Notes under the pieces: model-generated
Databases searched by the model: none
Seen by the model: the letters and a program-made list of their open reading frames with translations, nothing else
Told to the model about the DNA's origin: nothing
Shown: piece after piece, positions 18,205 through 33,818 of the stretch
Numbering within the stretch: position 1 is the stretch's first letter
Layout: each line of letters opens with the position of its first letter
Source of the DNA: Syntrophorhabdaceae bacterium
GTDB lineage: Bacteria > Desulfobacterota > Syntrophorhabdia > Syntrophorhabdales > Syntrophorhabdaceae
Assembly: GCA_035541755.1 (NCBI GenBank)
Contig: DATKMQ010000063.1
Coordinates: 13,364-77,363, forward strand
Direction: 5' to 3'
Length of the DNA: 64,000 nt
Made by a program: the position numbers and the translations under genes

Positions 18205-18276
18205 TATTTCATACGCATTCTTGAGATGCCCACAAACACTGAGAGGCGCCATTTTACGGGGCTTCGCAGATTTCAC

Positions 18277-18304
18277 TTGACAGAAACCTTAACTTACTAA
18301 TAAT
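18277..18304 (+). promoter_or_regulatory. Putative promoter TTGACA-16-AATAAT for the nuoEFG-like/nfnAB operon
   Basis: Consensus -35 at 18277-18282 and an AT-rich -10 at 18299-18304. This leaves a leader of about 150 nt. Confidence 0.4.
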
Positions 18305-18457
18305 CTGATACGCAGGGGTTGTTATGGAAAGCGTCGGTGCAACACACACTCTTCCTCACTGCTATTCATTGATGGAACCTCGTCTGCGAACTCGCATTCA
18401 ACGTAGCGCGTCTGTTTTTCGGTAACGCCACAGGTACGTGGCATAGAGGGGAAATCT

Positions 18458-18907
18458 ATGCCTGATGCGATTGAAACGATTCTCAAGAAACATGGACGGA
18501 CTTCCGATGAATTGATCCCTATCCTGCAGGACGTCCAAAAAGCAATCGGCTACGTTGGTCCGGAATCAATATCAAAGATATCCCGCCATTTGAAGATCTC
18601 GGAAAACCAGATATTCGGCGTCTCGTCTTTCTACGCCCAATTCCGATTTACCGAGCCGGGACGTCACTCGGTCAAAGTGTGTCTCGGCACAGCCTGTCAT
18701 GTAAAGGGGGGCGCCACCCTGCTCGAAATGGTTGAGCGCGACCTCGGCATCACCTGCGGGGAGACCACCGAAGATAAACGCTATGACCTGGAACGGGTTG
18801 CCTGTCTCGGATGTTGCGCCCTCTCTCCCGTCGTACAGATTGATCGCGATATATACAGCAGGATGTCGGTAAATAAACTAACGGAGCTCTTAAAAAAATA
18901 TGAATAA
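18458..18907 (+). CDS. NuoE/HydC-like thioredoxin-fold [2Fe-2S] subunit
   Basis: 149 aa. Cys pattern 'VKVCLGTACHV...VACLGCCALSP'. Confidence 0.9.
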   Translation: MPDAIETILKKHGRTSDELIPILQDVQKAIGYVGPESISKISRHLKISENQIFGVSSFYAQFRFTEPGRHSVKVCLGTACHVKGGATLLEMVERDLGITCGETTEDKRYDLERVACLGCCALSPVVQIDRDIYSRMSVNKLTELLKKYE

Positions 18908-20780: not shown

Positions 20781-22978
20781 CAAAAGAAAAGAGACTATCC
20801 ATTACCATCGATAACAGAAAAGTTGAAGTGAAACCACATCTCACCATATTGCAGGCCGCCAAGGAGCATGGCATCTACATACCGTCGCTCTGTACTCTCG
20901 AGCACCTTCCCTCGTATGGTGCGTGCAGGCTTTGTGTCGTTGAGGTGGATGGCTTGAGGGGCTTTCCTACGTCCTGTACTACGCCGGTGGAAGACGGAAT
21001 GGTCATCAGGACAGATACCGGGGAGATCAGGACACTTCGCCAGGAGGTGCTCAAACTACTCTTGAGCGAACATCCGGCCAGTTGTCTGTTCTGCACCGAG
21101 CAGGGCGAGTGCAAACAATACCAGGGCACCATAAGGAAGGTAGGGGTAACCACAGGCTGCCGGTACTGTCCAAACGACGAGCGCTGTGAACTTCAGCTCA
21201 TTACCGAAAGGATCGGTCTTGCGGACACATCATACCCTGTTTACTATCGCAACTTTCCGGTAGAGAAATTCGATCCGTTCTACGATAGAGATTACAATCT
21301 CTGCATTCTCTGCGGGCGCTGTGTTCGTGTATGTAGCGAGGTGCGTCTCAACGGAACGCTCAGCTTCAAACAGCGAGGCAAGGCGACGACCATCGGCCCG
21401 GCCTTCGACCGCTCCCATCTGGATGCCGGCTGTGAATTCTGCGGGGCCTGCGTGACCGTTTGCCCCACAGGAGCGCTCAGTACAAAGACGAGTAAATGGT
21501 ACGGTAAGCCTGACGCAGAGGTCAAAACAACCTGTCTTTACTGTCCCGTGGGCTGTGAGCTTATGCTTCAGATCAAGCATAACGAGACCATAGACGTACT
21601 CCCCAATTACGATTCGCCATTGGACAGGGGTCTTCTCTGTGTGAAAGGGCGTTTCGCTGTGCCCGAATACGTGTGCAGCTCCGAACGCCTCTCACACCCC
21701 CAACGTATGACGCCGGTGGGTTATGAAGACATCTCCTGGGATGAGGCTTTAGACCTGGCGGCGCAGAAGTTGTCCGAAACAAGACCCGAGGACATGCTTT
21801 TCGTTGTTTCACCTCAGCTCACCAATGAGGATCTCTTCATGGCCTGCCATCTGGCCAGAGGCGCGATCGGTACAGATGAGATTCTCTCCCCTGTGATTTC
21901 TGATTTGGGGGAGGACCTTGTCCCATTTCTCAACCTTACGTTGGCGGCAAGTCCCTTCGACGTTATCGATTCAGCCGACACAATCGTCGCGGTCGGATTC
22001 GATGCAACATACGGTTTTACGCCGCTTGGCATCAGAATTAAAGAGGCCGCGAAAGGGGGGGTAGCGCTTATAACTCTCAATGGCTATGGATCCAACCTCG
22101 ATATGCTGTCCGAGGAGGCCCTGTGCTTCGACGCTACGAAATGGCCGTCAGTCCTGGATAAGTTCATGGGCAAGACGCCTGGCAACGGAAAAGGCCGCAG
22201 GTCGTCCCACAAGGTGATTGTCATGGGAGAAGAGGCGATCTTTTCACGAAAGCGTGGCGAGCTTTTTGAGAAGATCATGAAGATGAAGGAATACTTCGGC
22301 TGGAATGTGATCGTCGCGCATCCTTATACGAACCTTCTCGGGCTTCTGTCCATGGGGGCTTTCCCCGGTATTAACAGAGGAGAGCTGCTCCGTAATGGTT
22401 CCAGGGGGACGACCCTCACGCTTAAGAAGGGTCTTTTGGCGTCTGTGAATATGAGCAAGCCGCGAAAGGCTGGCTATGTCATCGGAGAAGCACAATTGGA
22501 AAATATGCCTCACTGCGAATTCCTCATCTACCAGAATGCGTTGCCGCCCGCATCTTCACGCAAGCCGGATTTAATCCTTCCTTCAAGCCTGTTCAGCGAA
22601 ACGCCCGGCACGGTCGTGAGCATGGAGGGAAGGGTGTTGCAGGTGCGCAAGGCCACGGAACCGTATGCAGAATCCAGGCCTGACTGGTGGATTATGAGTA
22701 AGATTTCAGAAAAGATCAGTAAGGATGCCTTAAAATTCCGATCGCTCTCTGCAATACAGGCGGAAATAAAGAAACAGATGGCGGGTTTCTTCGATGGAAA
22801 AAGCAGACTGGAATTTCGGAAAATCGGCGCAAGACAGACCGATCTGGGCGCGAGCGGTACACGTCGGGCGGGACCGGGGACTTCGCGCAAACCGTGGCAA
22901 CAGATGTACCGGGGGATCGATCTTCAGGATATTGTCCCGGGCATGCGGGTCATAGAGCAAAGGAGATGCCATGAATAG
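20777..22978 (+). CDS. NuoG/FdhA-like Fe-S subunit with a truncated, apparently cofactor-less molybdopterin-oxidoreductase domain
   Basis: [2Fe-2S] 'CRLCVVEV', 'HPASCLFCTEQGEC', 'CILCGRCVRVC', 'CEFCGACVTVCP' and a Mo-type Fe4S4 'TTCLYCPVGC...LLCVKG'. Start set at ATG 20777 (ATGA overlap with the upstream stop), not the 20687 ORF-track start. Confidence 0.85.
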   Translation: MTKEKRLSITIDNRKVEVKPHLTILQAAKEHGIYIPSLCTLEHLPSYGACRLCVVEVDGLRGFPTSCTTPVEDGMVIRTDTGEIRTLRQEVLKLLLSEHPASCLFCTEQGECKQYQGTIRKVGVTTGCRYCPNDERCELQLITERIGLADTSYPVYYRNFPVEKFDPFYDRDYNLCILCGRCVRVCSEVRLNGTLSFKQRGKATTIGPAFDRSHLDAGCEFCGACVTVCPTGALSTKTSKWYGKPDAEVKTTCLYCPVGCELMLQIKHNETIDVLPNYDSPLDRGLLCVKGRFAVPEYVCSSERLSHPQRMTPVGYEDISWDEALDLAAQKLSETRPEDMLFVVSPQLTNEDLFMACHLARGAIGTDEILSPVISDLGEDLVPFLNLTLAASPFDVIDSADTIVAVGFDATYGFTPLGIRIKEAAKGGVALITLNGYGSNLDMLSEEALCFDATKWPSVLDKFMGKTPGNGKGRRSSHKVIVMGEEAIFSRKRGELFEKIMKMKEYFGWNVIVAHPYTNLLGLLSMGAFPGINRGELLRNGSRGTTLTLKKGLLASVNMSKPRKAGYVIGEAQLENMPHCEFLIYQNALPPASSRKPDLILPSSLFSETPGTVVSMEGRVLQVRKATEPYAESRPDWWIMSKISEKISKDALKFRSLSAIQAEIKKQMAGFFDGKSRLEFRKIGARQTDLGASGTRRAGPGTSRKPWQQMYRGIDLQDIVPGMRVIEQRRCHE

Positions 22979-23828
22979 AGTCATTGAAAGGACCATGATA
23001 GTTCCTAACATGCACCTCCTTGTGATTGAGGCCCCGGAGATTTCGTCAAAGGTAAGGCCGGGCCAGTTTGTCATTATCCGTGCAAACGATGAAGGCGAAA
23101 GGATACCCCTGTCTGTCGCGGACTGGAACAAAGAGCAGGGAACCGTTACCACCGTTTTCATGGAGGTAGGGGCTTCCACCGGGGCGCTTGCGTCGCTTGA
23201 AAAGGATGATGCGGTCGCCACGTGCGTCGGCCCGCTCGGAAATTCGACTGAGATCGGCCGGTTCGGTACGGTTCTCTTGATCGCTGGATGCTACGGCATC
23301 GGCAGCATCTATCCGGTGGCGAAGGAATTGAAAGCCGCCGGAAACCAGGTGATTACCGTACTCGAGGCCAGGAGTTCTTACCTCATTTACTGGGCAAAGA
23401 GGTTTGCCAGTCTCTCTGAGAAGATCTTTAGCGTAACGAGAGACGGGAGTCTCGGCATGAAGGGACATATTACGAGGCTCACGGAGATCATCCACTCCCT
23501 GCCCCAGCCTCCCGACCGAGTCATTGTGAACGGTTGCACCTATCTCATGGCCCACACATCAGAGGTCACGAGGGAACTCGGCATTCCCACGCTCGTGAAC
23601 TTAAACCCCATCATGATCGACGGGACGGGTATGTGCGGTGTGTGCCGGGTTACAGTAGGCGGTCAAATGAAATTCGCCTGTGTTGACGGCCCGGAATTTG
23701 ATGGCCACAAGGTGGATTGGAAGGAATTTCTCTCGAGACGTAAGGCGTACATGAGCGAAGAGACACTCTTTTTCAGACATAGCGAGCCCCACACTAAGGC
23801 CCATAAAGAAGGGAAGTGCCAGGCATGA
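22971..23828 (+). CDS. nfnA: NfnA-type small subunit (FAD/[2Fe-2S], sulfide dehydrogenase SudB-like)
   Basis: 285 aa. 'PGQFVIIR', 'ERIPLSVAD' and [2Fe-2S] 'DGTGMCGVCRVTVGGQMKFACVDGPEF'. Confidence 0.85.
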   Translation: MNRVIERTMIVPNMHLLVIEAPEISSKVRPGQFVIIRANDEGERIPLSVADWNKEQGTVTTVFMEVGASTGALASLEKDDAVATCVGPLGNSTEIGRFGTVLLIAGCYGIGSIYPVAKELKAAGNQVITVLEARSSYLIYWAKRFASLSEKIFSVTRDGSLGMKGHITRLTEIIHSLPQPPDRVIVNGCTYLMAHTSEVTRELGIPTLVNLNPIMIDGTGMCGVCRVTVGGQMKFACVDGPEFDGHKVDWKEFLSRRKAYMSEETLFFRHSEPHTKAHKEGKCQA

Positions 23829-25249
23829 ACGAAGAAAAAACCCCCGAAAAACAAAGCAAGATCGACCTCAATCGAAGAGACATGCCCAAACAGTCTCCAG
23901 AGATGAGGAGCCACAACTTTAGCGAGGTGGCGCTAGGTTACAACACGGAATTGGCACTCAGCGAGGCAAGCCGTTGCTTAAAGTGCAAGAAGCCGAGGTG
24001 CGTCACCGGATGTCCCGTAGAGATAGACATCCCTGGCTTCATTTCGTGCATCGTGCAAAATGATTTTTCCGCAGGCATCAAGAAACTCAAAGAAAAAAAC
24101 TGTCTGCCGGCTGTCTGCGGAAGGGTCTGCCCTCAGGAATCCCAGTGCGAATCGCAGTGCATTTTGAAAAACAAGGGCGCTGAGGTGGCTATCGGCCGGT
24201 TGGAAAGATTTCTCGCCGATTGGGAGGCACACAGCGGTCAGGTGGACGTCCCACCAAAAACCAAATCGAGCGGAAAGAAGGTGGCGATTGTGGGCTCGGG
24301 TCCGGCGGGGATCACCGTGGCCGGCGATCTGGTTCTCTTGGGCCACGAGGTTACCATCTTTGAGGCGCTTCACAGAGCGGGTGGCGTTCTCACGTACGGT
24401 ATTCCCGAATTTCGTCTGCCCAAGGCCATAGTGGCACGAGAAGTCGCCTACGTGAAAAGTCTTGGGGTAAATGTCATTACCGATTTCGTGGTGGGCAAGA
24501 CACGGACTATCGATGAACTCCTCGACGCATTCGACGCGATCTTCATTGGGACGGGTGCGGGCCTGCCCTGGTTCATGAACATTCCCGGTGAGAACTTAAA
24601 CGGGGTTTATTCGGCGAATGAGTACCTGACCCGCATGAATCTCATGCAGGGGTATCGATTCCCCCACTCTTCAACACCTATCAAGAAGCACAGGAAGGTC
24701 GCCGTGGTAGGGGGTGGAAATGTAGCTATGGATTCGGCCCGAACCGCACTCAGGATGGGGGCCGATGAGGTGCGTATCATTTATCGCAGATCCCATGCAG
24801 AGCTCCCGGCACGGCTTGAGGAAAGTGAGAATGCCGAGGAAGAAGGCGTGATTTTCAATATGCTTACCCTGCCCGTCAGATATATCGGTGACGAAAACGG
24901 ATGGCTCAAGGAGATCGAATGCCTCAAGATGGAGCTTGGCGAACCCGACGCGTCAGGCAGAAGAAAGCCCGTTGAGGTGCCAAACTCGAATTTCCGCATT
25001 GAAATGGATGCCGTGGTCTGCGCCATCGGGAACAGCCCGAACCCGCTCGTTCCCTCCACCACACCCGGCCTTGACACCACGCGCCACGGAACGCTCGTGG
25101 CCAACGAGCAAACCGGAAAGACGACCCGAAGCCGCATATGGGCGGGCGGCGACATTGTTACCGGGGCGGCAACCGTCATCCTTGCCATGGGCGCGGGACG
25201 AAAGGCGGCAAGGTCCATGCACGAATATTTGACGACAGGCGTAGAGTAA
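23816..25249 (+). CDS. nfnB: NfnB-type large subunit (GltD-like, 2x[4Fe-4S] + FAD/NADPH)
   Basis: 477 aa. 'CLKCKKPRCVTGCPV', 'CGRVCPQESQCESQC', 'VAIVGSGPAGITVAG' and 'GGDIVTGAATVILAMGAGR'. Confidence 0.85.
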   Translation: MPGMNEEKTPEKQSKIDLNRRDMPKQSPEMRSHNFSEVALGYNTELALSEASRCLKCKKPRCVTGCPVEIDIPGFISCIVQNDFSAGIKKLKEKNCLPAVCGRVCPQESQCESQCILKNKGAEVAIGRLERFLADWEAHSGQVDVPPKTKSSGKKVAIVGSGPAGITVAGDLVLLGHEVTIFEALHRAGGVLTYGIPEFRLPKAIVAREVAYVKSLGVNVITDFVVGKTRTIDELLDAFDAIFIGTGAGLPWFMNIPGENLNGVYSANEYLTRMNLMQGYRFPHSSTPIKKHRKVAVVGGGNVAMDSARTALRMGADEVRIIYRRSHAELPARLEESENAEEEGVIFNMLTLPVRYIGDENGWLKEIECLKMELGEPDASGRRKPVEVPNSNFRIEMDAVVCAIGNSPNPLVPSTTPGLDTTRHGTLVANEQTGKTTRSRIWAGGDIVTGAATVILAMGAGRKAARSMHEYLTTGVE

Positions 25250-25330
25250 CACGCAAGACCTCCCCGGGACGAGCAGGCTCGCTGTGAACCAGGCAGGCGA
25301 AGAATATTCCCACACACTTGTATTCTGCTC

Positions 25331-25359
25331 TTGACATGGCGCAGAAAAGACCGTATAGT
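25331..25359 (+). promoter_or_regulatory. Putative promoter TTGACA-17-TATAGT upstream of the ArsR-family gene
   Basis: Consensus -35 at 25331-25336, a 17-nt spacer, and -10 TATAGT at 25354-25359. Confidence 0.5.
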
Positions 25360-25406
25360 AGTTTCCAAGTTTCGCAACTATTATAGGATTGTGAGGGGCA
25401 AACGGC

Positions 25407-25751
25407 GTGTTGAGGGATGGTGACATAAGGGTCTACGAGATGCAGGCGGATATGTGTGCTGCTCTTGCCAATGCTAAACGATTACAAATACTTAACCTCT
25501 TAAAGGATGGGGAGGTATCGGTTGCCCAAATGGTAAGGGTCACGGGCGTTAGCAAGGCCAATCTCTCCCAGCATCTCGCTATACTCAGACAAAGAAACCT
25601 CGTATCGACCAGGAGGCAAGGGACTACCATCTATTACACAATCTCGAACCCCAAAATCACGGAAGCTTGTGCAATCATCCGGGGAGTTCTCATCGAAATG
25701 CTCAAAGAAAAAGTGAAGCTCTCCAAAAGGATGCAGGAAGTGAAGCTTTGA
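25407..25751 (+). CDS. ArsR/SmtB-family winged-helix transcriptional regulator
   Basis: 'CAALANAKRLQILNLLKDGEVSVAQMVRVTGVSKANLSQHLAILRQRNLVSTRRQGTTIYY'. GTG 25407 or ATG 25440 could be the start. No alpha3 'CVC' metal site. Confidence 0.85.
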   Translation: MLRDGDIRVYEMQADMCAALANAKRLQILNLLKDGEVSVAQMVRVTGVSKANLSQHLAILRQRNLVSTRRQGTTIYYTISNPKITEACAIIRGVLIEMLKEKVKLSKRMQEVKL

Positions 25752-25773
25752 CCTTTTATCGGGAGCCAGTAGT

Positions 25774-25789
25774 TGCGATATATCGCAAT
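25774..25789. promoter_or_regulatory. Perfect 16-bp palindrome TTGCGATATATCGCAA (candidate operator)
   Basis: Self-complementary over all 16 nt. It lies 23 nt after the ArsR-family stop, and no T-tract follows it. Confidence 0.35.
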
Positions 25790-26537
25790 TAAGAAATAAT
25801 TAGGCACTCGTTATCGTCACTAATAATAGAGAGTTACATAGCTAAAGAAGAGTCGGCGTAGCCTGCGAGGAATCAAAGGACCGAGAGCATGTGCTTTCGC
25901 TTAAAACATGGGGACACAACACACAGGCAGTACCTCATGGCGGCCTTCTTCTTCGTACTCATTGCTTCTGCATAGCTTACTTAGGTCGCAGGATACCCCG
26001 TCACGATCCAAATCACGGCCGGCTTCACCATGGCCCTGAGAGAACCCGGGACGGATGCGTATGTCCGAGAGGCATATTCTCATTGGAGGCGTATCTCTCA
26101 CACGCATAACCCGGTGTTGCCAAGGCCTTTCGGTTTGTTCAGGTTCTCCTTTCGGTGATGCGTGCGCTCTTTAAGTGGTCCTCGGTATGCATGGTACTCA
26201 GATTTCATGGTTTGGCCCGATCCACACGCGATGGGTTCAGCATTCGTAACAATTTTCAGTGCGACGAAAGGCGCTCGTCACTGCCTCGGTCTTCACTTCA
26301 CATCAACGTTCGCGGGGCTTGATCTCTTCATTTGTACGATTTCGACCAACTCTGTTTGGCCGTTCGGAAAGATGCGTTGCAGCGCGCTGGCCCCACGTAA
26401 AAAAGACTCTTTTTGACTTGACAAAATGGAGCTTCCTTGTGCATATTATCACAAAACAGAGACAGGGGTTCTATCCTCGTCTAAAAGGGGGTATTCTCAC
26501 AATACCATTTCATCATTGAATCTTCACCGGGTTCACC

Positions 26538-28607
26538 ATGAATAACACAGGACAAGATCTTATAGAACACGAAGAACACACCAACCGGGGCCTCACCATT
26601 GACAGTAGAAAATGCCGTCTCTGTCTGTACTGCGTGCAGCTTTGCCCTTCGAAGGCCGTAAAGCTTGAAAAAGACACGATCAAGGTAATTCCTGAACGGT
26701 GTATCCTGTGTGCGAGTTGCATCAAAGGCTGTCCTCAACACGCAATGAGCCTGTATGGCGGCCTTGGTACGGTGGGAAGTGTGCTCGCCTCGGGCGCTAA
26801 GACGATCGCCTGTCTTGACCCTGCCTTTCCTGCCGCTTTTGATGCCGAGAGCCCGCGCCGATTCGTTACCGCATTGAAGAAGCTCGGGTTTACCGAAGTC
26901 TGGGAGGGGGCCTTCGGCGTGGAACTCGTAAGCCAGGCTTATAGAAGACTACTCGACAGCAATACCGGCTCCCCGCTCATCTCGTCATTTTGCCCTGCTA
27001 TTGTCTTCTACATCCAGAAATATCTACCTCAGCTCATCCCCAATCTGGCGCCTATCGTGTCCCCAATGATTGCGATAGGCAAGGTGGCGCGCCACATCAA
27101 GGGGAATGATTGGAAGACCATATATATTACGCCCTGCCTTGCACAGGTGGGGGAGAGCGTGGCGGACGAGGTAGCCGGGGTGATAGATCACGTCATCACA
27201 TTCCGTGACGTCCAGCGCATGCTTGATGCGGCAGGCATAGACCAGGGTAAGCTCGAAGAAACCGAATTTGATGGTCCGCGACCCTTTTTGGGCAGAATCA
27301 TGCCGGTGATCGGCGGCCTGAATCGAAGCATGGGTTCAAGCTTTGACGTGCTCGAGGACGAAGTAAGCGTGGCATACGGACGGCGACAGGTGATAGGCCT
27401 TCTCAATCAGCTTGCCTCCGGTTACATACGAGCGGGGTTCCTCGATCTTGTCTATTGTGACGGTTGTATTGACGGGCCCTTCATCGACAGAGAACTCTCG
27501 GTACTCGGGAGAAGACATGTTATTGCCCGATATACCAAGGGTGAGATGGCCAAACAGAATATGTCCGATGTCCACAAAGAACTCGAGAAATACCAAGGTA
27601 TCGACCTTGGTCGTGAGTTCCGTAATACGGAAGAGAAACTTACCGCGCCTTCCGAAGAAGAAATAGAAACGATCCTCAAGAAGATAGACAAGCTCCCGCC
27701 CAGCAACAACCTTGACTGCAGGGCCTGCGGATACGCGACCTGTCGTGATAAGGCCATAGCCGTTGCCCAGGGGCTCGCTGACGCACAATTCTGTCTCCCC
27801 TACCTGCTTGACCAGAGCAACAAGATCTATCAGCAACTTGAGAAGTCGCATCGCGAGCTGCAAAAATCGCATCAAGAACTCGAACATGCCCAGTATCAGC
27901 TCATCCGCACAGAGAAGCTGGCAGCCCTGGGGCAACTCGCTGCAGGTGTGGCCCACGAAATCAATAACCCGCTTGGTACCATTACTATATACGCGCACAT
28001 ACTGTTAAAGACTATGGAGACCGAAGATCCGAGACGGGATGATATCGCGCTTATCATTAACGAGGCAAACCGTACAAAAGGTATCGTTCAGGGGCTCTTA
28101 AGTTTCGCGCGCGAGACCAAGCTCAAACCGGGCGACACGGATATTAATGAGCTCCTCGAAGACGCTCTCGGGCTTCTCGTCAACCAGTCCCTGTTCCAGA
28201 ACATAAAAATAAAGAAAAATTTTGCCAAAGACCTGCCCGCCATATTTGCCGACGGGACTCAGCTTAAGCAGGTGTTCTTAAATATTGTCCTCAACGCAGC
28301 GCAGGCAATGGAAGGCAAGGGCAATCTCGCGATTACAACATGGTTGCAAAAAGACCATATAAAGATTAGGATTCGTGATACAGGCCCGGGCATTCTGCCG
28401 GAACATGTGGCAAAACTCTTCAACCCCTTTTTCACCACCAAAGAGAAGGGTACCGGGTTGGGGCTTGCCATCTCTTACGGGATTATCGAGAGGCATTCCG
28501 GCAAAATCGAAGTCGACACCGAATTGGAAAGAGGAAGCACCTTTACCATTTCCTTACCTCTGGGCAGAGACGAAAAGGATTTGCAGGACGAAACAAAGAG
28601 GCATTAA
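26538..28607 (+). CDS. Sensor histidine kinase with N-terminal 2x[4Fe-4S] ferredoxin, [FeFe]-hydrogenase-large-subunit-like domain and a CxxCGxxxC Fe-S module
   Basis: 'CRLCLYCVQLCP' and 'CILCASCIKGCP'. Hydrogenase-like strings 'SSFCPAIV', 'ITPCLAQVGE' and 'LVYCDGCIDGP'. 'DCRACGYATCRDKAIAVAQG...FC'. H-box 'AHEINNPL' and HATPase 'GTGLGLAISYGII'. Confidence 0.85.
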   Translation: MNNTGQDLIEHEEHTNRGLTIDSRKCRLCLYCVQLCPSKAVKLEKDTIKVIPERCILCASCIKGCPQHAMSLYGGLGTVGSVLASGAKTIACLDPAFPAAFDAESPRRFVTALKKLGFTEVWEGAFGVELVSQAYRRLLDSNTGSPLISSFCPAIVFYIQKYLPQLIPNLAPIVSPMIAIGKVARHIKGNDWKTIYITPCLAQVGESVADEVAGVIDHVITFRDVQRMLDAAGIDQGKLEETEFDGPRPFLGRIMPVIGGLNRSMGSSFDVLEDEVSVAYGRRQVIGLLNQLASGYIRAGFLDLVYCDGCIDGPFIDRELSVLGRRHVIARYTKGEMAKQNMSDVHKELEKYQGIDLGREFRNTEEKLTAPSEEEIETILKKIDKLPPSNNLDCRACGYATCRDKAIAVAQGLADAQFCLPYLLDQSNKIYQQLEKSHRELQKSHQELEHAQYQLIRTEKLAALGQLAAGVAHEINNPLGTITIYAHILLKTMETEDPRRDDIALIINEANRTKGIVQGLLSFARETKLKPGDTDINELLEDALGLLVNQSLFQNIKIKKNFAKDLPAIFADGTQLKQVFLNIVLNAAQAMEGKGNLAITTWLQKDHIKIRIRDTGPGILPEHVAKLFNPFFTTKEKGTGLGLAISYGIIERHSGKIEVDTELERGSTFTISLPLGRDEKDLQDETKRH

Positions 28608-28637
28608 TTCAAAATATAAAGACAGGGAGAAGAAACC

Positions 28638-29039
28638 ATGGGCAAAAAAAGAATCTTGGTCATCGATGACGATGTGGATTTCGTGGATCTCAACAAGGCT
28701 ATCCTCGAAAACAGCGGATTCGAGGTAGTGACAGCATTTTCGGGCCGTGAAGGCATGGATAAGGTCAAGTTTGAATCGCCTGACCTTATCATGCTCGATC
28801 TCATGATGGAAAAGCACGACTCGGGTTTTAACTTTGCAAAGACCATCAAGGCAGATCCTCGCTATAAAAACATACCGATTCTTATGATCTCATCAGTGAA
28901 AACAGAAACCGGGTACGATTTTTCCATGGACCTCGACGGCTACTGGATGAAGACCGATGATTTTGTCGGTAAACCGGTTGCGCCGGAAGAACTGCTCAAG
29001 CGCATCAACAGTCTTTTGGCGAAAGAACAAAAAGAATAA
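28638..29039 (+). CDS. Stand-alone response-regulator receiver (CheY-like, no output domain)
   Basis: 133 aa. 'LVIDDDVD', 'IMLDLMM' and 'FVGKPV'. Confidence 0.9.
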   Translation: MGKKRILVIDDDVDFVDLNKAILENSGFEVVTAFSGREGMDKVKFESPDLIMLDLMMEKHDSGFNFAKTIKADPRYKNIPILMISSVKTETGYDFSMDLDGYWMKTDDFVGKPVAPEELLKRINSLLAKEQKE

Positions 29040-29055
29040 TCCTTAGAGAGTATGC

Positions 29056-30549
29056 ATGGCTGAGACAGCGCACATCCTGGTAGTTGATGATGAGAAGGGT
29101 ATCCGTGAAGGGTGCCGAAGGATCCTCGTCAGCGAAGGATATGCCGTTGATTTGGCGGAAAACGGGAAAGAGGCCCTGGACATGGTGCGAGCAAAACCCT
29201 ACGACCTCCTCCTTGTCGATCTCATGATGCCTGTCATGGGAGGTATGGAGCTCATGGAAGAGGTAGGGCAGATTGACCCTGAAATCATCATGATCGTCAT
29301 TACCGGTTTTGCAACGGTGGAAACCGCTGTCGACGCCATGAAGCGAGGCGCGTATGACTACATCCCAAAACCCTTCTCGCCTGACCAGCTCATCTCTGTT
29401 CTCAACAGAGGCCTTGAAAAGAGACGGCTCAGGATCGAGACGGAAAAGCTCCGTGAGGAAAGGGATCAGAAGCTCCTTGAAATAGCCAGCGAAAAATCGA
29501 AGCTTCGTACCGTGGTCAACTCAATGGCCGATGGGATCATTGTTATCAACCGCGAGGGTCAGCTCGTGCTCTTTAACCCCGCGGCGACTAAAATGCTTGA
29601 TCTCGATCAAAGACTCGAGCTCGGCAAGAGTGTCCTCGACATCATAGTGCAAAAGGATTTGCTCGACCTTATAAACAAGGCCTTTTCTCCTGATTCCTCA
29701 AGGTACACGGTTCTTTCCGAGGAGATCGAACTGACCGGGGCGGAATCAAAGACCCTTATGGTCAACGTTGCGAGGGTAGAGGACGAGATGGGCCGCGATC
29801 TCGGCGCGGTGAGCACTTTTCGCGACATAACAGGACTTAAGGAGATCGAGGAGATAAAATCGCAGTTTGTCCGGATGGTTGCGCACGAACTCAGGGCGCC
29901 TCTGGCGGCGGTGACCGGGTACCTGACGGCCTACCTCACAGGGGTAGCAGGCACCGATCCTCAGGTGAACCGCCAGATGCTGGAGCGGGCCCGGCTCAGG
30001 GCTGAGTCGCTTATCGAGCTGGTAAACGATCTTTTGCAGTTCGCGAGACTCGAATCAAAGAAGGTCGAAAGAAAAAAGGAGCTTCTCGACATATCGGAAA
30101 TTATCGTGAACACCGTAGAACTCCTAAAACCTCAGGGTGCAGGCAAAGACCTCGTCTTTGAGCTCAACATCCCGGCCAAGCTACCCTTGATCGAAGCGGA
30201 CCGGACAGAAATGGATCAACTCATCACAAACCTTGTATCAAACGCCATAAAGTATAATGTAAAAGACGGCAAGGTCGTGGTCAGCGCCACGCCGGATACT
30301 CATTTCTTGACCATTAAGGTGGCCGACACGGGAATCGGCATTGAAGAGGAGTTTCTGCCCTGTATTTTTGATGAATTCTATCGGGTGCAGGGGCCTAATA
30401 CGCGGTACACCACGGGGACCGGCCTCGGGTTATCGATCGTGAAGAAGATCGTGGAATCCAATTTCGGCCGTATCGAAGTGGAAAGTCAGGTAGACAGAGG
30501 AACTACGTTTACGGTGAAACTACCCCTCAAGGGGATGGATAGAGAATAA
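29056..30549 (+). CDS. Receiver-PAS-histidine kinase (N-terminal REC hybrid kinase)
   Basis: REC 'LVVDDEKG...LLLVDLMMP...YIPKPF', a PAS region, H-box 'AHELRAPL' and HATPase 'GTGLGLSIVKKIV'. Confidence 0.9.
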   Translation: MAETAHILVVDDEKGIREGCRRILVSEGYAVDLAENGKEALDMVRAKPYDLLLVDLMMPVMGGMELMEEVGQIDPEIIMIVITGFATVETAVDAMKRGAYDYIPKPFSPDQLISVLNRGLEKRRLRIETEKLREERDQKLLEIASEKSKLRTVVNSMADGIIVINREGQLVLFNPAATKMLDLDQRLELGKSVLDIIVQKDLLDLINKAFSPDSSRYTVLSEEIELTGAESKTLMVNVARVEDEMGRDLGAVSTFRDITGLKEIEEIKSQFVRMVAHELRAPLAAVTGYLTAYLTGVAGTDPQVNRQMLERARLRAESLIELVNDLLQFARLESKKVERKKELLDISEIIVNTVELLKPQGAGKDLVFELNIPAKLPLIEADRTEMDQLITNLVSNAIKYNVKDGKVVVSATPDTHFLTIKVADTGIGIEEEFLPCIFDEFYRVQGPNTRYTTGTGLGLSIVKKIVESNFGRIEVESQVDRGTTFTVKLPLKGMDRE

Positions 30550-30579
30550 GCGAGAATCAAATTCTTAAAAGGAGAAGAT

Positions 30580-32838
30580 ATGGCGAACAAAGAAACGAAA
30601 CTCAACGAGATCGTGGAGAAAAGGCTACTTGCTCCCTCGATCACCATGTACAAACTCTATGTGCCGGATATCGCAAAAAAGGTCAAGGCAGGCCAGTTCG
30701 TCGTGGTCCGATGCGATGACATGGCCGAACGTGTCCCGCTCACGGTCGCCGATTTCGACCGCAAACAAGGCACTATCACGATTATTTTCCAGGAAGTCGG
30801 TGCCTCGACGCAGAAGCTGGGGAAATTCGAACAAGGTGACTCACTTCTTGACGTGGTCGGCCCCCTCGGCAAACCGAGCCACATCGAGAAATTCGGCACC
30901 GTGGTCTGCGTGGGCGGGGGAGTCGGTGTGGCGCCGGTCCTTCCTATCGCAAAAGCGCTCTTCGAAGCAGGCAACGAGGTGATTTCGATTATCGGCGCCC
31001 GCACGAAAGAGATGCTTATCCTCGAGGAAGAGATGAAAAAGGCGAGCACAAAACTCTACGTAACGACCGATGACGGCACCTACGGCCACCACGGTTTTGT
31101 TACCGACGTGTTAAAGCAGGTCATCGAGGAGAAGAAAAAGATCGACCTCGTCGTGGGCATCGGCCCGGTCGTCATGATGAGGGCCGTTTCCGACGTGACG
31201 AGACCCCATAACATTAAGACCGTCGTCTCCCTCAACACGATCATGGTGGATGGGACCGGTATGTGCGGTTGCTGCAGGGCGACGATCGGTGGAGAGACAA
31301 AGTTTGTCTGCGTTGATGGGCCTGAATTTGACGGCCATCAGGTCGATTTCAAGGAACTGGTACTGCGCCAGAAGATGTATAATCGCGAAGAAAGACGCGC
31401 CATGTGGGATCACGCCTGTAAACTTGAAGCCAAAGCCAAGGCCATGAAGAAGTCGAAGCTCAGGGAAAAGATGCCCGAGCAAGACCCCAAAAATAGGATC
31501 CAGAATTTTAGCGAAGTTGCCCTGGGCTATACCCACGACAACGCGCTCAGGGAAGCATCGAGGTGCCTCCAGTGCAAGAACTCTCCCTGTGTTGAAGGCT
31601 GTCCGGTCAATGTCCAGATTCCTGCCTTCATCAAGCAGATAAGGGAAGGCGATTTCATGGGCGCCATCCACACGATCAAATCGACAAACAGTCTGCCCGC
31701 CGTCTGCGGCCGCGTATGCCCCCAGGAAACCCAATGCGAACAGAAGTGCGTACTCGGAAAGAAAGGACAGCCCGTGGCCATCGGTCGACTGGAACGCTTC
31801 GCCGCGGATTATGAGCTGCACAAGGGCGACGTAAGGGCTCCCCAGAAAACGAAAAGCACGGGAAAGAAGGTCGCCGTAATCGGCGCCGGCCCATCCGGGC
31901 TCACGGTTGCCGGCGAACTTTCGAAAAAGGGACACGATGTGACGGTCTTCGAGGCCCTGCACAAGGCGGGAGGGGTCTTGGTATACGGTATTCCCGAGTT
32001 CCGTCTGCCCAAGGCCGTGGTGCAGCGCGAGGTAGACTATGTTGAGAAACTCGGCGCGAAGATCAAAGTGGACACCATAGTCGGTCAGACCATGACGCTT
32101 GACGAACTCTTTGAAGCAGGATTTGATGCGGTCTTTATCGGCACAGGTGCGGGGCTTCCCTATTTCATGAATATCCCCGGTGAAAACCTAAACGGAGTTT
32201 ACTCGGCAAACGAGTTTCTCACCAGGGCAAATCTGATGAAGGCCTACCTCTTTCCGGAATACGATACGCCGGTCAGAGTGGGTAGCAGGGTCGCTGTAGT
32301 AGGCGGCGGGAATGTGGCCATGGATGCGGCAAGGGTCTCTAAACGGCTCGGCGCCAATGTCTATCTCATTTATCGCCGTTCCAAAGAGGAGATGCCCGCG
32401 CGGGCCGAAGAAGCTCACCACGCCCAGGAGGAGGGCATAGATTTCAGGCTCCTCACCAACCCGGTAAGGATCATAGGCGATGAAAACGGCTGGGTCAAGG
32501 GCATCGAATGTGTGAAGATGGAGCTTGGCGAGCCCGATGCCTCAGGCAGGAGAAGACCGGTTGAGATCAAGGGCTCCAATTATGTAATCGATGTTGATGT
32601 AGTAATCATAGCCATTGGCCAGGGTCCGAACCCGATCCTCACATCCACCACGCCGGGGTTGAAGTTGAGAAAGTCAGGCAACATAGAGGCAGACGCCGAG
32701 ACTGGCCAGACGAGCCGTGAAGGCGTGTTCGCCGGCGGTGACATAGTGACCGGGGCAGCGACCGTCATCCTTGCAATGGGCGCCGGAAGAGCGGCCGCAA
32801 AAGCAATTGACGAATATCTCGCGGCCAAGACCAAATAG
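30580..32838 (+). CDS. nfnAB: Fused NfnA-NfnB (single-polypeptide NADH-dependent ferredoxin:NADP+ oxidoreductase-like)
   Basis: 752 aa. Residues about 1-280 align with the 22971 product ('DGTGMCGCCRATIGGETKFVCVDGPEF'). Residues about 300-752 align with the 23816 product ('CLQCKNSPCVEGCPV', 'GGDIVTGAATVILAMGAGR'). Confidence 0.88.
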   Translation: MANKETKLNEIVEKRLLAPSITMYKLYVPDIAKKVKAGQFVVVRCDDMAERVPLTVADFDRKQGTITIIFQEVGASTQKLGKFEQGDSLLDVVGPLGKPSHIEKFGTVVCVGGGVGVAPVLPIAKALFEAGNEVISIIGARTKEMLILEEEMKKASTKLYVTTDDGTYGHHGFVTDVLKQVIEEKKKIDLVVGIGPVVMMRAVSDVTRPHNIKTVVSLNTIMVDGTGMCGCCRATIGGETKFVCVDGPEFDGHQVDFKELVLRQKMYNREERRAMWDHACKLEAKAKAMKKSKLREKMPEQDPKNRIQNFSEVALGYTHDNALREASRCLQCKNSPCVEGCPVNVQIPAFIKQIREGDFMGAIHTIKSTNSLPAVCGRVCPQETQCEQKCVLGKKGQPVAIGRLERFAADYELHKGDVRAPQKTKSTGKKVAVIGAGPSGLTVAGELSKKGHDVTVFEALHKAGGVLVYGIPEFRLPKAVVQREVDYVEKLGAKIKVDTIVGQTMTLDELFEAGFDAVFIGTGAGLPYFMNIPGENLNGVYSANEFLTRANLMKAYLFPEYDTPVRVGSRVAVVGGGNVAMDAARVSKRLGANVYLIYRRSKEEMPARAEEAHHAQEEGIDFRLLTNPVRIIGDENGWVKGIECVKMELGEPDASGRRRPVEIKGSNYVIDVDVVIIAIGQGPNPILTSTTPGLKLRKSGNIEADAETGQTSREGVFAGGDIVTGAATVILAMGAGRAAAKAIDEYLAAKTK

Positions 32839-32861
32839 ATTCGTTTCTCTTGTGCAACGTG

Positions 32862-32893
32862 AAAGGGCAGGCCCTTCCGGCCTGCCCTTTTTG
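32862..32893 (+). terminator. Rho-independent terminator after nfnAB
   Basis: 12-bp perfect stem AAAGGGCAGGCC / GGCCTGCCCTTT with a 5-nt loop, running into a T-tract. Confidence 0.75.
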
Positions 32894-32938
32894 CATTAAA
32901 GCACGCCGATCAAGGGCGCTATCAATTGTCACATCCTG

Positions 32939-32967
32939 TTGACTTCCGGCGCGTGCCGCATCATACT
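32939..32967 (+). promoter_or_regulatory. Putative promoter TTGACT-17-CATACT upstream of ubiE
   Basis: -35 at 32939-32944 and -10 at 32962-32967. Confidence 0.4.
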
Positions 32968-33023
32968 ACAGAGAAGTGGCGCTCAAGGAAGAACCCCGAA
33001 CGTATACCGAGAAGGCAGGACGC

Positions 33024-33818
33024 ATGGAAGAGAAGGCGTCCGGAGAAGACGTAAAGCTTGTCAACTTCGGATTTCAAAAGGTACCTGAAACAGAGAAAGC
33101 TTCGCGGGTGAGAGATCATTTCGACCATATAGCGGGCCGATACGATTTCATGAATACGCTGTGCAGCTTCGGCATCCATTACCTATGGAAACGGATGGCT
33201 GTGGCTCTTCTTAATCTCAAACAAGGGGAAACCGTCCTTGATGTGTGCGGCGGCACAGGCGACCTTTCGGTGCTTGCGGTAAACAAGGTGGGACCTTTCG
33301 GCCGGGTAATCCTCGCCGACATAAACCACGCCATGATCGAGGCGGGCAGGCGCAAAAGACTCCATAGGGAACAGAGAAAAAAGATCGTCTATCTTCAGTC
33401 CGATACCGAAAACATGGCCATACAATCCGATTCCGTTGATGCGGTCATGGTGGGGTTCGGAATCAGGAACCTCACCCATATGGAGCGGGGCTTTGGCGAG
33501 ATATATCGTGTCCTCAAACCCGGCGGGCGGCTCATGTGTCTTGAATTTTCGAGGCCCAGGGCGGCTTGGTTTCGCTGGCTTTACGATTTCTATTCCTTCC
33601 ACATTATGCCTTATGTGGGCCTCATCTTTGCCGGTTCGAAACAACCCTTTACCTATCTGCCTCAATCGATCCGCCGATTTCCCGGTCCCCAAGAACTCAA
33701 AGAGCATATCGCAGGGATAGGCTTTGAGCGCGTATCATACGAGATTTTCACCAACGGCATTGCCGCAACACATATGGGCATAAAACCAGGGAGGGCGGGG
33801 CATTTGCCTCCCGCATAG
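33024..33818 (+). CDS. ubiE: Demethylmenaquinone / ubiquinone C-methyltransferase
   Basis: 'VNFGFQKVPETEKASRVRDHFDHIAGRYDFMNTLCSFGIHYLWK', SAM motif 'VLDVCGGTGDL' and 'FGIRNLTHMERGFGEIYRVLKPGGRLMCLEFS'. ATG 33024 is preferred over the GTG 32976 ORF-track start, which would sit at the predicted TSS. Confidence 0.82.
   Translation: MEEKASGEDVKLVNFGFQKVPETEKASRVRDHFDHIAGRYDFMNTLCSFGIHYLWKRMAVALLNLKQGETVLDVCGGTGDLSVLAVNKVGPFGRVILADINHAMIEAGRRKRLHREQRKKIVYLQSDTENMAIQSDSVDAVMVGFGIRNLTHMERGFGEIYRVLKPGGRLMCLEFSRPRAAWFRWLYDFYSFHIMPYVGLIFAGSKQPFTYLPQSIRRFPGPQELKEHIAGIGFERVSYEIFTNGIAATHMGIKPGRAGHLPPA

Follow-up and report, generated by a model that had tools for sequence, protein, structure and literature searches.

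In the 64,000-nucleotide stretch of DNA analysed here (the window), from an uncultured syntrophic bacterium, one predicted operon joins a hydrogenase-like Fe-S sensor kinase (HK1), a second kinase (HK2) and a free receiver (REC) to the redox-balancing enzyme NfnAB. The free receiver and the fused nfnAB gene are the invariant core of this arrangement, both kinases are dispensable add-ons, and the three signalling genes are best explained as an older cassette that one lineage, the Syntrophorhabdales, put to new use by attaching it to the fused NfnAB. The features concerned are:

18458-25249, + strand: operon of NuoE/NuoF/NuoG-like genes and split NfnA/NfnB (context; from domains and locus comparison)
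25407-25751, + strand: ArsR-family HTH gene (context; Pfam HTH_5)
26418-26447, + strand: sigma-70-like promoter upstream of HK1 (TTGACA, 18 nt, CATATT; 10/12 consensus match)
26437-26454, no strand assigned: Rex-type operator candidate, TTGTGCATATTATCACAA, overlapping the -10 region (16/18 match to consensus)
26538-28607, + strand: HK1, soluble sensor histidine kinase (domain search, alignments)
28638-29039, + strand: free 133-aa receiver, PhoB/WalR-type REC (Pfam Response_reg only)
29056-30549, + strand: HK2, receiver-PAS-kinase (Pfam Response_reg, PAS, HisKA, HATPase_c)
30580-32838, + strand: fused NfnAB, 752 aa (NfnA part approximately residues 1-285, NfnB part approximately 295-752)
32852-32896, + strand: intrinsic-terminator-like hairpin after nfnAB (13-bp perfect stem at 32861-32891, then U-rich)

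The four open reading frames are separated by 30, 16 and 30 nt, as the initial annotation had it, and the spacers range from -38 to +102 nt across 21 loci. When the upstream regions of relatives are compared, the -35 and -10 regions align and the flanks do not. A consensus scan of the + strand found a second promoter-like site (9/12 match) inside HK1 and no further ones in the block, listed no terminator-like sites within it, and gave neither kind of site from 27867 to 32939; the hairpin after nfnAB was overlooked by this simple scan only because its stem includes part of the T-run. This hairpin, the strong terminator that the initial annotation had placed at 32862-32893, folds at -30.2 kcal/mol (z = -4.7 vs shuffles), with an equally good fold in 0 of 200 shuffles. 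The best explanation is that the four genes form one operon, predicted to run from the promoter-like site to the hairpin. In domain searches none of the three signalling proteins showed an output domain such as HTH or GGDEF, and no DNA-binding output was present in the cassette at any of the more than 50 loci seen, which bears out the earlier description of two kinases and two receivers that lack one. The ArsR-family gene lies upstream of the block in at least 15 loci (50-73% identical).

NfnAB consists of an NfnA-type module (NAD_binding_1, DHODB_Fe-S_bind) followed by an NfnB-type module (Fer4_20, Pyr_redox_2), and scores 1147 bits against the fused-family model NCBIfam NF009414, above the curated cut-off of 1103. 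Among solved structures it comes closest to T. maritima NfnAB (4ylf) and P. furiosus NfnI (5jca), with E = 6.5e-186 to T. maritima NfnB, and it is 78-92% identical in relatives. In a search of 301 genomes of the phylum, the uninterrupted fusion was almost confined to Syntrophorhabdales. Conservation of the four-gene block in other genomes, which had been suggested as a check, was found at every HK1-holding Syntrophorhabdales locus fetched (approximately 37), all of them colinear. At 13 loci outside the Syntrophorhabdales there is no receiver or kinase upstream of nfnAB.

The HK1-REC-HK2 trio itself, made up of an H-domain sensor kinase, a free receiver and a receiver-(PAS)-kinase, is more widespread. 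It occurs in the same order and with 34-46% identity in other Desulfobacterota (L088, L089, L095, L096, L098-L101), within rex-hydCBA...hydEG clusters and beside NuoE/NuoF/HydA, rex and hydE/G; nfnAB is absent from these loci. The position that hydCBA takes beside the trio there is occupied in the window by the NuoEFG-like/split NfnAB operon. The trio is an older cassette than its tie to nfnAB. Since this free receiver also occurs in the hydrogenase-linked trios, where nfnAB is missing, partnership with Nfn is not intrinsic to its family, and its target may instead be the kinases or something else that the loci share.

A natural deletion series is found among relatives, with the arrangements REC-HK2-nfnAB, REC-(HK2 without its receiver)-nfnAB and REC-nfnAB, and the free receiver is upstream in every fused-nfnAB locus fetched. 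Four congeners without any kinase retain it upstream of nfnAB (spacer 33-55 nt). D54 is replaced (E, G) in two of the four, and the motif LDGYWMKTDD, invariant and located at residues 99-108 on the alpha4-beta5 side, is unchanged; these congeners may derive from one ancestral deletion and so not be independent. In two genera without HK1 (L106, L118) the receiver domain of HK2 is also lost and the PAS-HK is kept beside the free receiver. The presence of the receiver beside nfnAB despite the loss of both kinases points to control of the enzyme and not of the gene. The earlier suggestion that nfnAB is a plausible beneficiary of redox sensing is thus likely to be right, since the receiver stays directly upstream where HK1 or both kinases are gone; neither the age of the trio nor the dispensability of the kinases had been noticed.

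Single-domain receivers are well known as phosphate sinks. We give little credence to a reading in which a DNA-binding response regulator encoded elsewhere is the end point of the relay, with the free receiver as a phosphate sink or buffer and nfnAB co-expressed rather than controlled, although many other response regulators are encoded in the genome and the nfnAB-free hydrogenase-linked trios would suit it. A sink is purposeless without kinases, yet an intact receiver with its motif stands directly before nfnAB in the four kinase-less genomes, and at L104 the receiver is kept before nfnAB in a wholly different upstream context. The closest paralogue of the free receiver in the genome is only 38% identical and the best of the HK2 receiver 43%, which argues for an insulated module.

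The free receiver carries D10/D11, D54, S85 and K112. HK2 consists of an NtrC/NtrX-type receiver (D11/D12, D55, T83, K105), a coiled-coil linker, a PAS domain and a PhoR/WalK-type transmitter (His277). The DHp domain of HK1 best matches AtoS/ZraS and that of HK2 PhoR/WalK/PnpS, while the HK2 receiver best matches NtrX/AtoC/NtrC1 and the free receiver PhoB/WalR. In other phyla, NtrC-type regulators directly follow the nearest relatives of the HK1 core, and their receiver resembles that of HK2. Family matching predicts which kinase pairs with which receiver in a statistical sense only; on this matching and the deletion series, we prefer a sequential cascade (HK1 to the HK2 receiver, HK2 to the free receiver) to a branched one, and so retain the former of the two phosphorelay designs offered by the initial annotation. 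Wiring by adjacency would instead have HK1 phosphorylate the free receiver, which would modulate HK2 allosterically or by heterodimerising with the HK2 receiver (DivK-DivL-like) in a branched or feedback pathway. Cognate pairs are usually neighbours, the HK1-REC-HK2 order is conserved across the phylum, and the conserved alpha4-beta5 face of the free receiver is the usual receiver dimerisation surface. We nevertheless consider this wiring improbable: the nearest relatives of HK1 pair this transmitter class with receivers of NtrC type whereas the free receiver is PhoB-type, and where HK1 is lost, two genera have lost the HK2 receiver as well but not the free receiver.

What HK1 would sense is suggested by its domains (Pfam Fer4 dicluster, Fe_hyd_lg_C with E = 4e-41 over the full profile, PF04060 FeS, HisKA and HATPase_c). 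A 2x[4Fe-4S] ferredoxin domain (Cys 26/29/32/36 and 55/58/61/65) is joined to an [FeFe]-hydrogenase H-domain that retains the four H-cluster cysteines (Cys152, Cys200, Cys307, Cys310), and a Cx2Cx4Cx16C motif (Cys 394/397/402/419) and an AtoS/ZraS-type transmitter (His473) complete the protein. F151 and Q203 stand at the positions of CpI C299 and K358. The [2Fe]-binding pocket is degenerate in the Syntrophorhabdales clade, where the K358 position is K in 0 of 114 members (Q in 57, H in 36, R in 21) and the C299 position is F in 105 of 113. With the anchoring lysine of the [2Fe] subcluster gone, HK1 is more likely to read the ferredoxin/electron pool through its [4Fe-4S] clusters than to detect H2 at a complete H-cluster. 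Hydrogen bonds can be donated by Q, H and R alike, and HydF and HydG are encoded in the genome, so a modified H-cluster is still conceivable.

Alternatively, HK1 could genuinely sense H2, in the manner of TmHydS and TamHydS, with an H-cluster that is unusual but complete, so that the operon would fit Nfn to H2 partial pressure, which decides the feasibility of syntrophic metabolism. The four cluster cysteines, N-terminal F-clusters and Cx2Cx4Cx16C of groups C/D are present (PMC8163306), loss of C299 is normal among sensory hydrogenases (PMC8163306, PMC10055695), sister cassettes lie within hydrogenase clusters, and HydF, HydG, true HydA genes and a HydS-like gene were found in the genome. We regard this as unlikely, if not strongly so. 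The variation at the K358 position among close relatives, never K, suggests relaxed constraint, whereas K is present in 127 of 148 family representatives (50% clusters, those scored at the position) and in each of the 8 kinase versions linked to hydrogenases; the bulky F is rare at the C299 position (4/148); sensory hydrogenases are reported to conserve the residues that form hydrogen bonds to the [2Fe] ligands (PMC10055695); and the cassette no longer lies beside hydrogenase genes.

The candidate operator resembles the Rex consensus TTGTGAA-W4-TTCACAA, an 18-bp palindrome (PMC2883068). Only 5 such sites, this one included, occur in the 3.85-Mb genome, compared with 0-2 in shuffles, and the box is kept with at most one half-site mismatch in 13 of 21 orthologous upstream regions; similar boxes precede rex or hyd genes at L101 and L095. 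It is missing in the Syntrophorhabdus-proper clade and in kinase-less loci, and could alternatively be merely a conserved -10/start region. The genome has two Rex genes, unlinked to the block. We infer a DNA-binding input at the level of the operon which, like the degenerate pocket, the initial annotation had overlooked.

We propose the following mechanism, which as a whole we think has an even chance of being correct. The redeployed cassette and nfnAB would be transcribed from a promoter with a Rex-type (NADH/NAD+) operator as far as the hairpin after nfnAB. The Fe-S clusters of HK1 would sense cytoplasmic redox, and its AtoS/ZraS-type transmitter would phosphorylate the NtrC-type receiver of HK2, which in turn would gate the PhoR/WalK-type transmitter of HK2. 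The PhoB-type free receiver, phosphorylated by HK2, would then act by protein binding, most probably to NfnAB itself, so that the exchange between NADH plus reduced ferredoxin and NADPH would be tuned post-translationally.

Rex control of nfn is known from C. kluyveri, where nfn belongs to the unit rex-crt-bcd-etf-hbd-nfn, and in C. autoethanogenum a fused nfn lies downstream of rex (PMC6405883). The window is similar in its promoter-overlapping palindrome (16/18) and in the presence of Rex genes in the genome, but rex is unlinked, the operon encodes its own putative phosphorelay, and the candidate box is absent from part of the order. The enzyme shares the NfnA-then-NfnB domain order with 4ylf and 5jca and with the fused 'pattern B' Nfn, which is also one chain; a review gives pattern B for Firmicutes (Clostridium autoethanogenum/ljungdahlii), Bacteroidetes and Fusobacteria, not for the Syntrophorhabdales lineage (PMC6405883). 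A signalling partner is described for none of the known Nfn enzymes.

The HK1-REC-HK2 trio in hydrogenase clusters matches the putative histidine-kinase-fused sensory [FeFe]-hydrogenases of group C, catalogued in HydDB as 'C1 histidine kinase-linked (putative)' and as 'BfuT' (group C3) beside BfuABC (PMC5037454, PMC8163306, PMC10055695, PMC11406978); signalling has been shown for none of these. With groups C/D (TmHydS, TamHydS), HK1 has in common two N-terminal [4Fe-4S] motifs, an H-domain that keeps the four cluster cysteines but has lost the one of the proton relay, a C-terminal Cx2Cx4Cx16C and a fused signalling domain. It differs from the catalogued proteins in lacking the CpI K358 lysine (Q here; Q/H/R in the clade), in its Phe at C299, and in the place of its gene, away from hydrogenase structural genes and between the NuoEFG-like/NfnAB operon and the fused nfnAB.

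Networks of several kinases that lack output domains, and single-domain receivers acting through protein binding, are known (Myxococcus RedCDEF, CheY-FliM, DivK-DivL, CpdR-ClpXP). As in these, kinases and receivers occur here without an effector domain and the output is presumably a protein-protein contact, although the homology is limited to generic domains and the proposed target is a soluble electron-bifurcating flavoenzyme. The closest counterparts by gene order, the hydrogenase-linked trios, have in common with the window the Cx2C form of the L3 motif and the lack of a DNA-binding output. In contrast, their sensors retain K358 and adjoin HydA and maturases with no downstream nfnAB, and a rex gene heads some of their clusters where the window has only a candidate operator. 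The Syntrophorhabdales clade is set apart by the link to a fused nfnAB, by the loss of the K358 lysine (with C299 to F) and, in the promoter of the window, by a putative Rex-type operator.

Four open reading frames, all on the plus strand, make up the block; the first three form the trio.

Genes of the block (window positions, strand, product)
26538-28607, plus strand, HK1, hydrogenase-like Fe-S sensor kinase, 689-aa ORF
28638-29039, plus strand, REC, free receiver, 133-aa ORF
29056-30549, plus strand, HK2, receiver-PAS-kinase, 497-aa ORF
30580-32838, plus strand, NfnAB, fused transhydrogenase, 752-aa ORF

The spacers between these genes in the window are 30, 16 and 30 nt. Based on Pfam, HK1 comprises a 4Fe-4S dicluster, a full-length Fe_hyd_lg_C domain (E = 4e-41), PF04060 ('FeS'), HisKA and HATPase_c; REC has a receiver domain only, and HK2 a receiver, PAS, HisKA and HATPase_c. 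In NfnAB, the NfnA modules (FAD/NAD, [2Fe-2S]) precede the NfnB modules (2x[4Fe-4S], FAD, NADPH) in a single chain. The protein scores 1147 bits against NCBIfam NF009414 (fused pattern B, cut-off 1103) over profile positions 1-751, and its best solved relatives are T. maritima NfnAB (4ylf_A/B) and P. furiosus NfnI (5jca_S/L). By family score and domain order, the 752-aa protein is a fused pattern B NfnAB with predicted enzyme activity.

In both kinases HisKA and HATPase_c are above cut-off, and the H-box histidines (H473 in HK1, H277 in HK2) and the surrounding boxes are invariant across 21 orthologues. The acceptor sets are complete in the free receiver (D10/D11 acidic pocket, D54, S85 and K112) and in the receiver of HK2 (D11/D12, D55, T83 and K105). 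As the initial annotation had stated, domain searches of all three signalling proteins recovered no HTH, GGDEF or other output domain. Judged by its domain content, the relay lacks its own transcriptional output. A consensus scan of the plus strand identified promoter-like sites at 26418-26447, upstream of HK1, and, more weakly, within HK1, and no terminator-like site within the block. The hairpin 3' of nfnAB folds at -30.2 kcal/mol (z = -4.7). The gene layout, spacers and strong hairpin after nfnAB first described for this region were right in every detail that could be checked by ORFs, Pfam, consensus scan and folding. An Rfam scan of 25200-33100 detected no riboswitch or leader, its sole match being a sub-threshold sRNA on the terminator hairpin.

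The closest full-length relatives of HK1 are encoded in MAGs labelled Syntrophorhabdus, Syntrophorhabdaceae, 'Syntrophus sp.' or 'delta proteobacterium', a group that is the class Syntrophorhabdia (Thermodesulfobacteriota) in the NCBI taxonomy. An HK1 orthologue (63-80% identity) occurs in 29 of 41 related genomes. Conservation of the four-gene block elsewhere had been named as a check on the phosphorelay reading. HK1, REC, HK2 and fused nfnAB are colinear in all 20 of the relatives' loci that were fetched, with spacers of -38 to +102 nt, and the same order is found in 19 further named loci, a few of which duplicate the first set. Compared with the window, NfnAB is the best conserved of the four (78-92% identity), and HK2, REC and HK1 are less so (60-83%).

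The initial annotation proposed a branched or sequential phosphorelay. The phospho-acceptor domain of HK1 best matches the AtoS/ZraS kinases, which partner NtrC-type regulators. The best matches of the HK2 receiver are NtrX, AtoC, NtrC and NtrC1/DctD structures, those of the HK2 phospho-acceptor domain are PhoR, WalK and PnpS, and those of the free receiver are PhoB/WalR-type receivers. The closest relatives of the HK1 kinase core in other phyla are directly followed by NtrC-type activators (450 aa), the receivers of which are 38-48% identical to that of HK2. Within the genome, the best paralogue of HK2 adjoins one of the best paralogues of the free receiver in an ordinary PhoR/PhoB-like pair on contig C170. 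Taken together, the family-level matches, the NtrC-type neighbours and the C170 pair point to a linear cascade, in which HK1 would phosphorylate the receiver of HK2 and HK2 would phosphorylate the free receiver; we infer these steps, as we do all mechanistic steps of the relay. The domain matches and the deletion series found in relatives argue for the sequential arrangement, and the branched one is not favored.

HK1 is absent in 12 relatives. We examined seven HK1-less relatives, six of these 12 and a genome from the phylum search (G303). Fused nfnAB is kept in all seven, at 79-88% identity. One genome (G036) has REC-HK2-nfnAB; G010 and G303, from two genera, have REC, an HK2 that begins at PAS, its receiver gone, and nfnAB; and in G001, G002, G003 and G006, which are from the window's own genus, both kinases are gone and REC lies 33-55 nt before nfnAB. 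In G003 the context upstream of REC-nfnAB is unrelated, and the deletions in these four genomes may reflect one shared history. As REC and fused nfnAB persist through every deletion, they are the invariant core of the block. The loss of HK1 is accompanied by loss of the HK2 receiver, in line with the prediction of the proposed wiring.

The phospho-acceptor D54 is kept in all 120 of the closest homologues of the free receiver, and is replaced in two of the four kinase-less relatives (by E in G001 and by G in G002). The motif LDGYWMKTDD, invariant in all four kinase-less receivers, aligns to the alpha4-beta5 region, a contact surface in PhoB-type receivers. Outside the order, nfnAB is nearly always encoded by two separate genes, and none of 13 loci checked has a receiver or kinase upstream of it.

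The suggestion that nfnAB is a plausible beneficiary of redox sensing gains from the retention of the small receiver with fused nfnAB in every HK1-less relative examined: the enzyme sharing the operon is the relay's most plausible target, and would be reached through this receiver. More specifically, the free receiver could be a dedicated phospho-switchable subunit of NfnAB, such that a two-component cascade fed by Fe-S (the ferredoxin pool) gates the bifurcating transhydrogenase at the protein level, a proposal that we regard as rather unlikely. If it is true, the receiver in kinase-less lineages would persist as a constitutive accessory subunit of NfnAB. In strict anaerobes, Nfn balances NADH, NADPH and reduced ferredoxin against one another, and in syntrophs such as Syntrophorhabdus this balance decides whether degrading aromatic compounds yields any energy.

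HK1 was aligned to CpI, the [FeFe]-hydrogenase used for residue numbering, and to the HydA and HydS-like proteins of the same genome. Fer4 families match the N-terminus at residues 20-70, and all eight cysteines (26, 29, 32, 36, 55, 58, 61 and 65) are conserved among orthologues. The H-domain (PF02906) matches with E = 4e-41 over profile positions 2-245, and C152, C200, C307 and C310 are invariant and align with CpI C300, C355, C499 and C503, the cysteines holding [4Fe-4S]H and bridging to [2Fe]. The Cx2C spacing of HK1 is common to 90 of 148 family representatives (the best 150 of the sensor module from a 1.84-billion-protein library, of which 148 were scorable). There follow C394-x2-C397-x4-C402-x16-C419, with a match to PF04060, and then HisKA/HATPase; this Cx2Cx4Cx16C motif is typical of group C/D sensory hydrogenases, as defined in PMC8163306. 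The C299 position is occupied by F151, and Phe is found there in 105 of 113 clade members and just 4 of the 148 representatives.

In CpI, K358 holds a cyanide ligand of the [2Fe] subcluster. The corresponding residue of HK1 is Q203, and within the nfn-linked clade (n = 114) it is Q in 57, H in 36, R in 21 and K in none. Lysine is found in 127 of the 148 representatives scored and is kept in all eight of the hydrogenase-linked versions of the kinase. The entire nfn-linked clade forms one 50% cluster, with the next relative 43% identical. In the tree, nfn-linked, hydrogenase-linked and sigma-54-fused sensors form three cleanly separated, well-supported clades with no settled branching order, and thus the 'loss' of K358 rests on parsimony with true hydrogenases. 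To us, the variability of this position and the absence of lysine suggest relaxed constraint, which favors an Fe-S redox sensor that would lack a canonical [2Fe] site over an H2 sensor. The genome carries HydF, HydG, HydA and a HydS-like gene, so maturation of HK1 would be possible in principle. On balance we lean modestly towards the redox sensor and regard a true H2 sensor as the somewhat less probable of the two.

In the true HydA proteins of the genome (C83:4393-6120 and C77:24114-25142), and in that of a hydrogenase-linked locus (L101:5128-6954), the L1 motif is TSCSPGW, which in a gap-free alignment would place Ser at the position of the cluster ligand CpI Cys300, with the preceding Cys kept. 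The HydA gene on C83 is preceded by an NfnB/GltD-like gene. About 4 kb from the HydA gene on C77, a 452-aa, M2e-like HydS-like protein (C77:18509-19867) has F-clusters, H-domain, Ala at the C299 position, K358 and Cx2Cx4Cx16C, and lacks PAS and kinase domains.

Searching the phylum with the sensor part of HK1 gave strong matches in 22 of 301 genomes. Eight of the loci, from other families (L088, L089, L095, L096 and L098-L101), encode counterparts of the trio (HK1-like kinase, free receiver, HK2-like kinase) in the same order, at 34-46% identity. Here genes of the NuoE/NuoF type and a true HydA immediately precede the trio, often with rex at the head and hydE/hydG after, and in none of the eight does nfnAB follow. 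By this distribution, the trio is older than its link to nfnAB. In other Desulfobacterota (L090-L094 and L097), the same sensor module is fused to a sigma-54 activator with a Fis-type HTH, by architecture a one-component version of the sensor. These proteins keep 2x[4Fe-4S], the H-domain and Cx2Cx4Cx16C, with His at the C299 position and L3 in a Cx3C form.

Common to the relatives' regions upstream of HK1 are a TTGACA box and a palindrome, TTGTGCATATTATCACAA, that overlaps the -10 region (window 26437-26454). The palindrome matches the Rex operator consensus TTGTGAA-W4-TTCACAA (PMC2883068) at 16 of 18 positions. Sites at this level or better number five in the genome, compared with 0-2 in shuffles, and 13 of 21 orthologous upstream regions retain the candidate box with no more than one mismatch in the half-sites. 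Boxes resembling it lie ahead of rex or hyd genes at two of the hydrogenase-linked loci, L101 and L095. The genome encodes two Rex proteins (PF06971, on C179 and C172), and Rex control of nfn is documented for C. kluyveri (PMC6405883). No Rex-like box was found in the Syntrophorhabdus-proper clade or in the kinase-less loci, and no auto-operators before the genome's two rex genes. The putative Rex operator would constitute a DNA-binding input to the operon. A sigma-54 promoter upstream of HK1 was rejected, the GG/GC spacing in TGGAGCTTCCTTGTGCA being by eye one base too long, and the sigma-70/Rex reading is preferred.

The remaining genomic sites matching at least 16 of 18 positions are at C169:13276, C59:2116, C26:10749 and C84:2332. 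Three of the four are 29-108 nt upstream of genes resembling acetyl-CoA synthetase, an aldehyde:ferredoxin-oxidoreductase/BamB-like tungsten enzyme and a carboxyltransferase (glutaconyl-CoA decarboxylase-like); C84:2332 has no ORF of at least 100 aa within 300 nt. Together these sites could mark the aromatic-degradation core as a small Rex regulon. At window 26394-26420, an inverted repeat of 13 nt (CACGTAAAAAAGA / TCTTTTTGACTTG, 85% complementary, arms separated by 1 nt) overlaps the -35 element of the promoter upstream of HK1.

Many loci have a NuoE/NuoF/NuoG-like and split-NfnAB operon upstream of the block (window 18458-25249), together with an ArsR-family gene. Since this operon has its own TTGACA-N17-TAATAA-like promoter (window 18270-18310) and no Rex-like box there, the two Nfn-containing operons seem to be differently controlled. 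The 786-nt gap between arsR and HK1 (window 25752-26537) contains no intact gene. In many relatives the same place encodes a 203-243 aa membrane protein, a NapH-like polyferredoxin with Fer4_5 and 2x[4Fe-4S] motifs (for example L036:6183-6914 and L102:9765-10376), and kinase-less congeners have the order arsR, polyferredoxin, REC, nfnAB. For a polyferredoxin remnant in the gap, tblastn gave one weak match (22% identity, E = 1e-4), which the closer homologue from L015 did not reproduce. The arsR homologue of a kinase-less congener (L102:9228-9570) is in two overlapping pieces in different frames and may be frameshifted.

The natural deletion series singles out the small receiver as the persistent partner of fused Nfn. 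The four soluble proteins form a complete system that could be rebuilt in vitro and would show signal passage from sensory [FeFe]-hydrogenase modules that are so far purely 'putative'. As the sensor of this clade seems to have abandoned the [2Fe] site, H2 and redox sensing can be tested against each other using the hydrogenase-linked sister cassettes.

Sensors of this type have been catalogued: HydDB lists 'C1 histidine kinase-linked (putative)' (PMC5037454), and a 2024 survey named group C3 proteins with a histidine-kinase domain adjoining BfuABC 'BfuT' (PMC11406978). The literature searched contained no description of a relay behind such a sensor or of a link to Nfn, and no post-translational regulator of any Nfn or any flavin-based electron-bifurcating enzyme. 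The block is not a new kind of system, as fused Nfn and Rex-controlled nfn are also already known. New here are an evolutionary connection between the cassettes linked to hydrogenase and those linked to Nfn, the degeneration of the [2Fe] pocket in the clade of the latter, a wiring of the trio at family level, and the deletion series, from which the free receiver emerges as a candidate regulatory subunit of NfnAB. HK1 shares with the group C/D sensory [FeFe]-hydrogenases (HydS/BfuT) the F-cluster cysteines, the four H-cluster cysteines, a replaced C299 and Cx2Cx4Cx16C with a signalling domain. In contrast to HK1, that class is reported to keep the residues that hydrogen-bond the [2Fe] ligands (K358) and is encoded with group A hydrogenase genes, whereas the neighbors of HK1 are the NuoEFG-like/NfnAB operon, arsR and fused nfnAB, and the HydA genes of the genome are on other contigs.
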